Assembly (NCBI RefSeq): GCF_000015945.1
Contig: NC_009033.1
Coordinates: 930,001-962,000, forward strand
DNA length: 32,000 bases
From: Staphylothermus marinus F1
GTDB lineage: Archaea; Thermoproteota; Thermoprotei_A; Sulfolobales; Desulfurococcaceae
Direction of reading: 5' to 3'
Shown one piece after another: positions 2,919-27,134 of this stretch; position 1 is the first letter of the stretch; every line of letters begins with the position of its first letter. The translations under genes were made by a program, and so were the position numbers. The notes beneath the pieces were generated by a model. That model made no database searches. It was not told the origin of the DNA and saw only the letters and a list, made by a program, of their open reading frames with translations.

Positions 2919-3035
<117 letters not shown>

Positions 3036-3059: not shown

Positions 3060-3842
3060 GTGAATACATTATTTCATAATTGCTTGGTTGTTTGGATGGT
3101 GGTTTTCATGGTTTCTGCAGAGGTTTTAAATGGTTATGGTGTTTTAGGCATTGATAAAGAATATATTGTTGGCAAATACTTGTTGTCTTTGGAGAAGATT
3201 AGAGATGAAATTATAGTTTATCGTAGATCTATTAATAATAATGTTTTAGTTGAGCAAAAAATCATAGGTTTTGACAAGGTTTTAATTACTCCATTCTATC
3301 CTGTCCTACTACCTCGTAAAATAACTAGTTTTGTCCTCGTAGACTTCTCGGAGAAAATAAGGCTTGCCCCCAACTCATATACTGAAATCTACATATATAT
3401 ACCCGTTGATATCGCAGTATATGTTTATCGAGATACGAATTTTGACATAATAGATGTTATTGAGGGGGCTGATCCAAAATATGCATTATATGGATCAACT
3501 AGTATGGGTGTTATAGCTAGATATAGTGTTTCAAAAACATATGTATCTGAACCAGAACCTGTTTTTGGAAAAGCAGTTTCACTACTCAAAATACATAATA
3601 CATTGGATGAATGGGTATTATTCACACAGATCCTCCTAGATTCAAATAATCTATCAATATATTACCGGGAGAAATCATGGAAAGCTTATACTCAAGAAAT
3701 AAATGTAACCATAAACTCTAAAACAACTGCTTCAATAAAATATGGTAGATCTTTTAGGAAAGGTCTTAGAAGAATAGATGATCCAAAAGATTTTAAGCCT
3801 CCCCGTATAAGTCCTGGAACCGAAATGTTGTGGGGGATATGA
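3060..3842 (+). CDS. Hypothetical protein (conserved-looking, no family recognised)
   Basis: This is the 260-aa track ORF with a GTG start. Alternative ATG starts lie at 3096 and 3108. Its stop lies directly before the mscS-like gene. Confidence 0.5.
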   Translation: MNTLFHNCLVVWMVVFMVSAEVLNGYGVLGIDKEYIVGKYLLSLEKIRDEIIVYRRSINNNVLVEQKIIGFDKVLITPFYPVLLPRKITSFVLVDFSEKIRLAPNSYTEIYIYIPVDIAVYVYRDTNFDIIDVIEGADPKYALYGSTSMGVIARYSVSKTYVSEPEPVFGKAVSLLKIHNTLDEWVLFTQILLDSNNLSIYYREKSWKAYTQEINVTINSKTTASIKYGRSFRKGLRRIDDPKDFKPPRISPGTEMLWGI

Positions 3843-6040: not shown

Positions 6041-6404
6041 AATAGAGGGGAGGGGCGGGCCATAACCCGCATTCTGTACAAGCTGCATTAGACTATGCGG
6101 CCCCCAACAGGGGGTTGCGCGGCCACCTCATCCCCCCTAATAATTAGGGGGGCCTTGCACCCCACGGGACCGGCCGTTTCAACGCATCCACCGCCGTCCT
6201 CAACGGGTTGCTGAGCCCCCGTTGCCGGGGGCTCCTCACCGCTTCATCGCCATCCGAGCGGTGGCCGTGTCGTTTCTGTGCCGGAGCCGCGGCTACTCGC
6301 CGCGCCCCGTTTCGGGGCCGTGGAGCCGCGGGGTGTGCGGAGTTTCCTCACCCCCTCTCCTAGAGTAGGGGGCGTGAGCAGCTGACCCGCCCCTCCCCTC
6401 TATT
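6041..6404 (-). ncRNA. rnpB: RNase P RNA (archaeal type A-like)
   Basis: This is a GC-rich block in AT-rich DNA. Read on the minus strand it gives GAGGGGAGGGGCGGGUC...GGUGAGGAAACUCCGCAC (CR-I, compare GAGGAAAGUCC), then ...GGCACAGAAAC..., then ...GGGGUGCAAGGCC..., then ...UGUACAGAAUGCGGGUUAUGGCCCGCCCCUCCCCUC (CR-V, compare ACAGAAnnCGGCUUA). The two ends pair to form a long P1 helix. Confidence 0.85.
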
Positions 6405-19614: not shown

Positions 19615-19672
19615 GTGTCAGTAACACGGACCCTCTTCACAACTATCTGATAAGTGGCGATTCATCATCCAC
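19615..19672 (-). ncRNA. C/D-box sRNA
   Basis: On the minus strand the layout is GUGG-AUGAUGA(C)-12 nt AUCGCCACUUAU-CAGA(D')-UAGUU-GUGAAGA(C')-12 nt GGGUCCGUGUUA-CUGA(D)-CAC. It has a terminal GUG/CAC stem. The AT-rich TATA-like AATATAAT lies about 30 nt upstream. Confidence 0.7.
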
Positions 19673-20742: not shown

Positions 20743-20799
20743 TCAGTTCGCGGTAATGTCTTCATCCCCTACGGGTCTCTGGGGGGCAAGTGTCTTCAT
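20743..20799 (-). ncRNA. C/D-box sRNA candidate with variant AUGAAGA C and C' boxes
   Basis: On the minus strand the layout is AUGAAGA(C)-CACUUGCCCCC-CAGA(D')-GACCCGUAGGGG (small CCC/GGG hairpin)-AUGAAGA(C')-12 nt CAUUACCGCGAA-CUGA(D). It is a GC-rich island in AT-rich DNA. The D box abuts the stop codon of the convergent 20491-20742 gene. Confidence 0.5.
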
Positions 20800-21056
20800 C
20801 TCGTAAAGAAATTATTGTTTCTGCAGTGTTTTAATTCTATTCTTTATATCTTCTACTATCTTATCTGTTATGCCCATTTTTACTGCTAATGAGTAAGCTT
20901 TTTCTAATGCTTCTTTCTCACTAGAAGCTTTAACATTAAATATTATGTTTGTCCCAATTATTGCTACTCTATATCTTGTATCGCCTAGGAAAATATATGA
21001 TTCAATTATTCGGAAATGTGATTTGCTGAGCAGTTTTATTCACCTATGTATTGTTT

Positions 21057-21106
21057 TCAGCTAAACCCTGCCTTCATCACTAATCAGTGATCGAGGGCTT
21101 CTTCAC
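21057..21106 (-). ncRNA. C/D-box sRNA
   Basis: On the minus strand the layout is GUGAAGA(C)-12 nt AGCCCUCGAUCA-CUGA(D')-UUA-GUGAUGA(C')-13 nt AGGCAGGGUUUAG-CUGA(D). It starts 9 nt downstream of the HIT gene stop codon. Confidence 0.7.
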
Positions 21107-21115
21107 CATTAATAA

Positions 21116-26281: not shown

Positions 26282-26360
26282 ATTTTTAATTAATTCTCCT
26301 CAATGATTGGGGAGCAATTTGACGACTAGGGGATCTAAGAAATTTATTGGAAGACATTTA

Positions 26361-26921
26361 ATGGTTAAGGGGAAATATATAAATGATATTCTTAGCGGTA
26401 GAAAGAAAGCTACTATTAGGAGAGGAATTGTCAAACCTAGATATAAAGAAATAATAGTTCATGGGGCAGGAAGACCTATAGCGAAAATCTCTGTTGAGAA
26501 AGTATATTATAAACGCTTATATGAATTAACAGATGAAGATGCTGTGAAAGATGGTTTTTCTAGCCGTAGAGAACTAATTGATGAGTTGAAAAAAGTTTAT
26601 CCAGACATAAAAGATGATGAATGGGTAACAATTATTGAGTTCAAGGTTGTTCAGAGACTGGATCATTTAGAAACCGAGGATCCTTATCTAGGACTAGAAC
26701 CAGCAGACATTGCCCGCATAGCACTTAGGTATTTAGAGAATGAATTAGATGAAAAAGATAAGGAGATCCTATTAGATCTTACGAGGACAGGCAGCATCCG
26801 ATCAACTACGGTAAGATTATTCGGAACAATTGATAAAAGATATGTTGTGAGAAAAGTTTTAAGAAAAGCCCTTAATAAACTGGTCGAAAAAGGAATAATT
26901 AAGGTTAGGAAGGGAAAATAA
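26361..26921 (+). CDS. ASCH (PUA-like) domain protein with a C-terminal helical/wHTH-like extension
   Basis: MVKGKYINDILSGRKKATIRRG...DAVKDGFSSRRELIDELKKVY matches the ASCH pattern. The track ORF begins at TTG 26307, but the ATG at 26361 is the more likely start. Confidence 0.7.
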   Translation: MVKGKYINDILSGRKKATIRRGIVKPRYKEIIVHGAGRPIAKISVEKVYYKRLYELTDEDAVKDGFSSRRELIDELKKVYPDIKDDEWVTIIEFKVVQRLDHLETEDPYLGLEPADIARIALRYLENELDEKDKEILLDLTRTGSIRSTTVRLFGTIDKRYVVRKVLRKALNKLVEKGIIKVRKGK

Positions 26922-27077
26922 ATGACATACTGGATACTTCGATGTAAAACATGCGGGAATAAATGGAAACTACTAGTAAGCTATCCGTTGAAGAAGGAGT
27001 TTAAAGAGCTCTATCATTATTGCCCATACTGTAAAAGAAATACTTACCATGAAATAATTGAATATATAGAAGAATGA
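26922..27077 (+). CDS. Unannotated 51-aa zinc-ribbon protein
   Basis: My translation is MTYWILRCKTCGNKWKLLVSYPLKKEFKELYHYCPYCKRNTYHEIIEYIEE*. It has two CxxC knuckles 22 residues apart. The ATG directly follows the TAA of the upstream ASCH gene. It falls below the ORF track length cut-off. Confidence 0.55.
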   Translation: MTYWILRCKTCGNKWKLLVSYPLKKEFKELYHYCPYCKRNTYHEIIEYIEE

Positions 27078-27134
27078 TGATTCCACGGGAAAGACCCATA
27101 TAGGGGATGAATAAACCTGTCTCAGCTGATCTTT
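27069..27134 (+). ncRNA. C/D-box sRNA candidate
   Basis: The layout is GAAGA-AUGAUGA(C)-UUCCACGGGA-AAGA(D'?)-CCCAUAUAGGGG (hairpin)-AUGAAUA(C')-12 nt AACCUGUCUCAG-CUGA(D)-UCUUU. It has a 5-bp terminal stem (GAAGA/UCUUU, including one G-U pair). The C box includes the TGA stop of the 51-aa ORF. Confidence 0.6.

Follow-up and report, generated by a model that had tools for sequence, protein, structure and literature searches.

A box C/D guide sRNA of Staphylothermus marinus whose predicted 23S rRNA target overlaps an intron

Omer et al. 2000 reportedly included Sulfolobus acidocaldarius sR3 (Sac sR3) among their 18 RNAs. For this RNA and for Ignicoccus hospitalis sR411 (Iho sR411), expression is documented by 2048 and 1880 reads, respectively; both carry a D guide of the type described here for Staphylothermus marinus and have alignment position G2873 as their predicted target (Dennis et al. 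2015, PMC4644070 supplement). G2873 corresponds to E. coli G2599, since it lies seven bases before alignment position 2880, which is E. coli C2606; the same supplement prints the sR3 target as 'G28713', which we read as a typographical error for G2873, the alignment file marking S3 above I411. From what PMC3608112 cites of Kjems and Garrett 1991, archaeal bulge-helix-bulge (BHB) rRNA introns are also known from S. marinus, with two 23S introns that are short and similar in length to the 56 and 54 nt found here.

Here, we analysed a 32,000-nt stretch of the S. marinus genome (1,570,485 bp, 35.7% G+C), hereafter the window, for which a preliminary description had proposed a C/D-box sRNA at positions 27069-27134. 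Very probably, this element is a box C/D methylation-guide sRNA orthologous to Sac sR3 and Iho sR411 that acts by the mechanism set out below, and its boxes, its conservation, compensation between guide and rRNA, and the expression of its orthologs all support the original call. On every feature that can be tested in the sequence, it belongs to the sR3/sR411 family. Its D guide is identical to that of Sac sR3 but for one compensatory base, with the same D box register and predicted site, whereas Sac sR3 has another D' guide (no target listed) and another gene neighbourhood (synteny with Sulfolobus is not kept), and the S. acidocaldarius 23S target, unlike that of S. marinus, is without an intron. 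Iho sR411 (locus L113) shares the D guide core, the predicted 23S G2873, and the D' core CCACGGG, but differs in its CCGA D box and shorter internal loop, and its authors gave no D' target. Descent from a common ancestor, rather than convergence on one site, may be reflected in a near-universal single copy in the order, in a D box that adjoins the guide in every hit read, and in the D' core common to this RNA and Iho sR411. The features of the locus are as follows (window coordinates; WC, Watson-Crick).

26307-26921: ASCH-domain gene, upstream of the 51-aa open reading frame (ORF)
26922-27077 (+): zinc-ribbon-like 51-aa ORF that encodes two CxxC motifs and ends with its stop codon inside the C box of the sRNA
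27069-27134 (+): box C/D guide sRNA, very probable Sac sR3/Iho sR411 ortholog; ends inferred from the terminal stem
27069-27073 (+): terminal stem, 5' strand, partner of 27130-27134 (4 WC and 1 G-U pair)
27074-27080 (+): C box ATGATGA, perfect consensus; the upstream 51-aa ORF has its TGA stop within it (27075-27077)
27081-27090 (+): D' guide, 10 nt; 8 WC and 1 G-U pair with 23S C2064-G2072; position -5 is C27086, opposite G2067 (genome C1:1121826)
27091-27094 (+): D' box AAGA, degenerate; register set by homologs with CTGA, ATGA, or TTGA in identical columns
27095-27105 (+): 3-bp CCC/GGG hairpin that separates D' from C' and is the canonical internal k-turn stem, with compensatory changes among the homologs
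27107-27113 (+): C' box ATGAATA, degenerate, in register with the canonical boxes of homologs
27114-27125 (+): D guide, 12 nt, of which 27115-27124 pair with mature 23S U2596-U2605
27126-27129 (+): D box CTGA
27130-27134 (+): terminal stem, 3' strand

Most of what the preliminary description had said of the anatomy held, i.e., the C box is perfect, a GC hairpin does lie between D' and C', and the closing stem does have five pairs, though one of the five is a G-U. The D' box, which had been judged poorly defined, can be defined as AAGA, as 14 aligned homologs have a canonical CTGA, ATGA, or TTGA opposite it. The C-to-D box spacing fits the 45-70 nt expected of archaeal C/D guides, and the degenerate AAGA and ATGAATA together with the covarying stem between them should be able to form a D'/C' k-turn or k-loop. 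In the homolog alignment, 94% of the cells of this hairpin are paired and both sides change in two of the three pairs (kin that are not independent of one another), while the terminal stem is paired in only 59% of cells. The folding energy is unremarkable (z +1.28), as is expected of a k-turn RNA, and Rfam gave no match at 27069-27134 and none above gathering score in the window for this RNA or for six homologs.

The sRNA occupies the gap between the 51-aa ORF and a convergent top6A gene, whose stop codon lies 54 nt beyond it. The ASCH gene and the 51-aa ORF would probably constitute its host transcript, from the 3' end of which the sRNA is probably released, because the stop codon overlaps the C box; a stop codon within the C box is the commonest type of 3' overlap among archaeal C/D genes (PMC7994747). 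The 51-aa ORF, which is shorter than the 80-aa listing limit, is conserved and sits between the ASCH-domain gene and the sRNA in at least eight genomes of the family; it has no Pfam match, and its NCBIfam matches (HypA, L44e, and L33) are weak and all below cut-off. A promoter scan, which models bacterial-type promoters, returned nothing above chance. In the established C/D sRNP pathway, L7Ae binds first, followed by Nop5 and fibrillarin; fibrillarin, Nop5, and two L7Ae-family genes (candidate L7Ae) are encoded in the S. marinus genome, and L7Ae would bind the C/D and C'/D' k-turns of the sRNA, with Nop5 and fibrillarin joining next.

Elsewhere in the window lie an intron-containing tRNA gene (2919-3032, +), an RNase P RNA gene (6051-6394, -), and three further C/D sRNAs. 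The first of these sRNAs (19617-19671, -) has a weak Rfam sR5 match and a D guide that pairs at 12 of 12 positions with mature 23S (position 1584 of the spliced sequence, an A). The second (20743-20803, -) is a typical double guide with two 16S targets ~23 nt apart (466/468 and 490), and the third (21054-21110, -) has a D' guide with 11 pairs to 16S (position 1338, a C) and no D-guide target of at least 8 bp.

The D guide and its predicted helix 93 target

As the preliminary description had claimed, the D guide finds its target in domain V of 23S rRNA, and this target, at U2596-U2605 of helix 93 (E. coli numbering from rrlB), is upheld by conservation across the order and by compensatory change. 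The duplex with mature 23S comprises 10 contiguous WC pairs, with spacer positions 1 and 12 left unpaired. Eleven of 12 contiguous pairs had been anticipated if the rRNA read GGUU; the mature S. marinus target reads GGUC, hence 10. A match of fewer than nine contiguous pairs had been set as the point at which the target should be abandoned, and here the two forms of the rRNA part company: the unspliced gene gives 8 bp, below that limit, while the mature rRNA, with 10 bp covering position -5, lies above it. In the active geometry of the archaeal enzyme, the 10 bp involve positions 2-11 of the 12-nt spacer (PMC9670817), and the S. marinus duplex, with the same positions paired, matches it. Position -5 (C27121) stands opposite G2599 (genome C1:1122358), which by pairing is the second G of UGAG, the very residue that had been predicted. 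By the N+5 rule, the predicted 2'-O-methylation directed by the D guide is thus at G2599, which belongs to helix 93 in the peptidyl transferase centre (PTC); a limited literature search found no direct demonstration of Gm2599. When mature 23S, 16S, tRNAs, and RNase P RNA were compared, this 10-bp site was the best target, and 10 bp on mature 23S plus 16S was reached by 7 of 1000 shuffled D guides.

Across the class, the D guide plus D box motif occurs in 167 of 301 genomes, nearly always once (reversed control, 9), and of 65 hits that were inspected, 61 show a C box at the upstream distance expected of an sRNA. With a relaxed guide+D pattern, the motif was found in 28 of the 29 order genomes with a completeness of 95% or more; the remaining one carries it with an ACAGA variant of the D box. 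Outside the order there were two matches in about 120 genomes, neither with a convincing C box. The gene neighbourhoods of this order-wide single-copy sRNA are varied. The unpaired -1 base of the guide varies (37 G, 14 A, 6 T, and 4 C), and the conserved ACC at positions -9 to -11 pairs in full with 23S only. In Sulfolobaceae, a family recognised as such by its match to Sac sR3, G replaces A at -2 of the guide (8/8 genomes) and C replaces U at 2596 of the 23S (6/6 checked). This guide/rRNA change is compensatory, as the proposed target predicts, and counts as one evolutionary event rather than eight.

A second C/D-like candidate directed at the same helix lies outside the window (G000:C1:458950-459001, +). 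It can form 9 bp with 23S G2595-G2603, on precursor and mature 23S alike, and places -5 on U2596. Close to its D box, TTGA, there are two mismatches, and its 5' spacer looks like the complement of 23S 2581-2589.

The D' guide

For the D' guide, the probable partner is C2064-G2072, a segment of helix 74 about 530 nt upstream of the D-guide target, which yet borders the same catalytic loop. We lean, by a small degree, towards this pairing, through which the D' guide may methylate G2067. The duplex falls below the 9-WC criterion and is equalled by 161 of 1000 shuffles (p about 0.16), which is not significant alone. These figures also fit a single-guide RNA, with a D guide that alone is active and a D' segment that lacks a target, being orphaned or in decay, an alternative that we rate at somewhat below even chances. 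Consistent with it, Dennis et al. (PMC4644070) list a D' target for neither Sac sR3 nor Iho sR411. Across the order the D' guides are highly variable, and the match to 2062-2076 is lost in many homologs, including Sac sR3. Against it stand three observations. First, the 7-nt D' core CCACGGG is invariant while its -1 base varies (14 aligned homologs of two families, in rows selected for the core). Second, unrelated D' sequences from other genera reach the 2062-2076 segment in shifted registers, with up to 9 bp. Third, this segment, with at least 7 pairs for 21 of 58 distinct homolog D' guides, comes first of all the 23S windows, by the narrow margin of 21 vs 20 homologs.

If the D' guide does pair with helix 74, the sRNA would resemble the long-range double guides that have been proposed as rRNA chaperones (Neq sR15/sR17 and Iho sR114; PMC4644070 Table 3), whose sites, like 2067 and 2599, are distant in sequence and close in the folded rRNA; the 2067/2599 pair is absent from that table, and the S. 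marinus D' duplex is under the 9-bp criterion used there. In one clade (L025-L030), the D' guide instead looks, by eye, as if it could pair with 23S about 2507-2515, which is a further strand of the catalytic loop.

The target intron and the order of splicing and methylation

The single 23S gene of S. marinus carries a 54-nt insert within the D-guide target, after C2601, and excising this insert yields the exact sequence of the sister species, which has no insert. Folding of the precursor predicts a BHB in which U2596-G2599 and CUCA of the intron form a 4-bp helix between the bulges ACA and AAA; the insert thus has the two 3-nt bulges, the 4-bp helix, and the restoration of conserved rRNA upon removal that define BHB introns. 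By the established rule, BHB cleavage falls between the second and the third base of a bulge, which, with the predicted bulges, puts the junction between C2601 and A2602, where sequence alone permits three positions. The genome has two splicing-endonuclease genes. The intron begins with AG, a repeat of the start of exon 2, and the guide can therefore pair over 8 bp with the precursor (U2596-C2601 plus AG), a pairing that would require opening of the splicing helix.

Among 301 genomes, of which 190 yielded the site, an insert at 2601 occurs in 10, from three families, with lengths of 40-631 nt, and folding predicts the same BHB in all ten. The guide is present in eight of these ten genomes and was not found in the other two, G227 (91% complete) and G248 (81% complete). 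The sRNA of the sister species has boxes and guides identical to those of S. marinus, and its target is without the intron. Most likely, the intron landed in a pre-existing guide target, because the intron has a patchy distribution and is missing even from the sister species, in contrast to the widespread guide.

Of the ten carriers of the 2601 intron, six (L078, L079, and L081-L084) have another insert ~12 nt upstream, near 2588-2590, and the two introns flank a very short helix 93 exon (whole in four loci). The longest 2601 introns (L078 and L080; 418 and 631 nt) contain reading frames with a LAGLIDADG-like motif, found by pattern match, which suggests homing as a possible route of spread. 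A second 23S intron of S. marinus, 56 nt long (G000:C1:1121630-1121687; L001 about 3647-3704), lies near E. coli 1927-1928 and is also present in the sister species, not in G004.

The intron would trim precursor pairing to 8 bp and lock U2596-G2599 in the BHB helix, so that productive binding would most likely be post-splicing. That methylation follows splicing in S. marinus is the simpler reading, and one we hold to be reasonably likely, because the precursor offers 8 bp and keeps G2599 in the splicing helix. Nearest-neighbour estimates of net binding (duplex minus opening cost), made for naked RNA without proteins, give -2.9 kcal/mol for the precursor vs -9.6 for the mature rRNA at 37 C, and +0.2 vs -3.9 kcal/mol at 85 C, i.e., they favour the spliced 23S by 4 to 7 kcal/mol. 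These estimates speak against the opposite order, in which the guide binds 8 nt of the nascent precursor before the 3' half of the intron is made methylates G2599 ahead of splicing, and briefly delays BHB folding, an order that seems to us less likely. The full archaeal RNP still efficiently methylates 8-bp substrates in vitro at 70 C (PMC9670817), so duplex length alone does not exclude the precursor as substrate. It also fits the earlier action of the guide that AG starts all 10 introns at 2601, so that the 8 bp are preserved, and that, although the S. marinus intron has 54 nt, others reach up to 631 nt and would offer a time window; the leading AG is, however, accounted for by BHB geometry (the bulge A and the first G of the stem).

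Methylation after splicing, the order we prefer, would also fit a broader and tentative proposal, which taken jointly we consider doubtful: splicing would gate PTC ribose methylation, with the guide and the endonuclease both requiring U2596-G2599 and the sRNP therefore restricted to spliced 23S, in S. marinus and at least seven other genomes with the intron, and the second guide would tie helix 74 to helix 93 while the catalytic centre is assembled.

Remaining alternatives and significance

It is quite improbable that the D' guide targets RNase P RNA or that the D guide also serves a 16S site. Both matches are present in S. marinus (RNase P, 8 WC and 2 G-U; 16S, 8 WC including -1), but the RNase P site differs in three of the four readable relatives that share the guide core, and RNase P RNA was ruled out as a D' target for this want of conservation. 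The 16S duplex breaks at -9, short of the ACC that pairs fully with 23S, which leaves 16S less favoured as a second target of the D guide. That the motifs are chance box-like sequences at a gene end, with no RNA gene, is effectively refuted, since the absent Rfam match, the z-score of +1.28, and the overlap of C box and stop codon, which could be cited in its favour, are set against the order-wide retention of a single copy amid differing gene neighbourhoods, the compensatory guide/rRNA change, and orthologs known to be expressed.

The S. marinus sRNA is then another member of a published guide family, and the RNA itself is ordinary. A limited literature search turned up no earlier account of a target that overlaps a BHB intron or of the possible long-range D' target, nor of any guide RNA aimed across the junction of one of the S. 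marinus rRNA introns. Gm2599 is likely a conserved mark adjoining the catalytic A2602, because the guide is near-universal in the order and changes in compensation with the rRNA. Guides with intron-split targets are missed when unspliced rRNA genes are searched, and the sister pair, with identical boxes and guides and a target with or without the intron, provides a clean natural system for ordering rRNA splicing relative to guided methylation.
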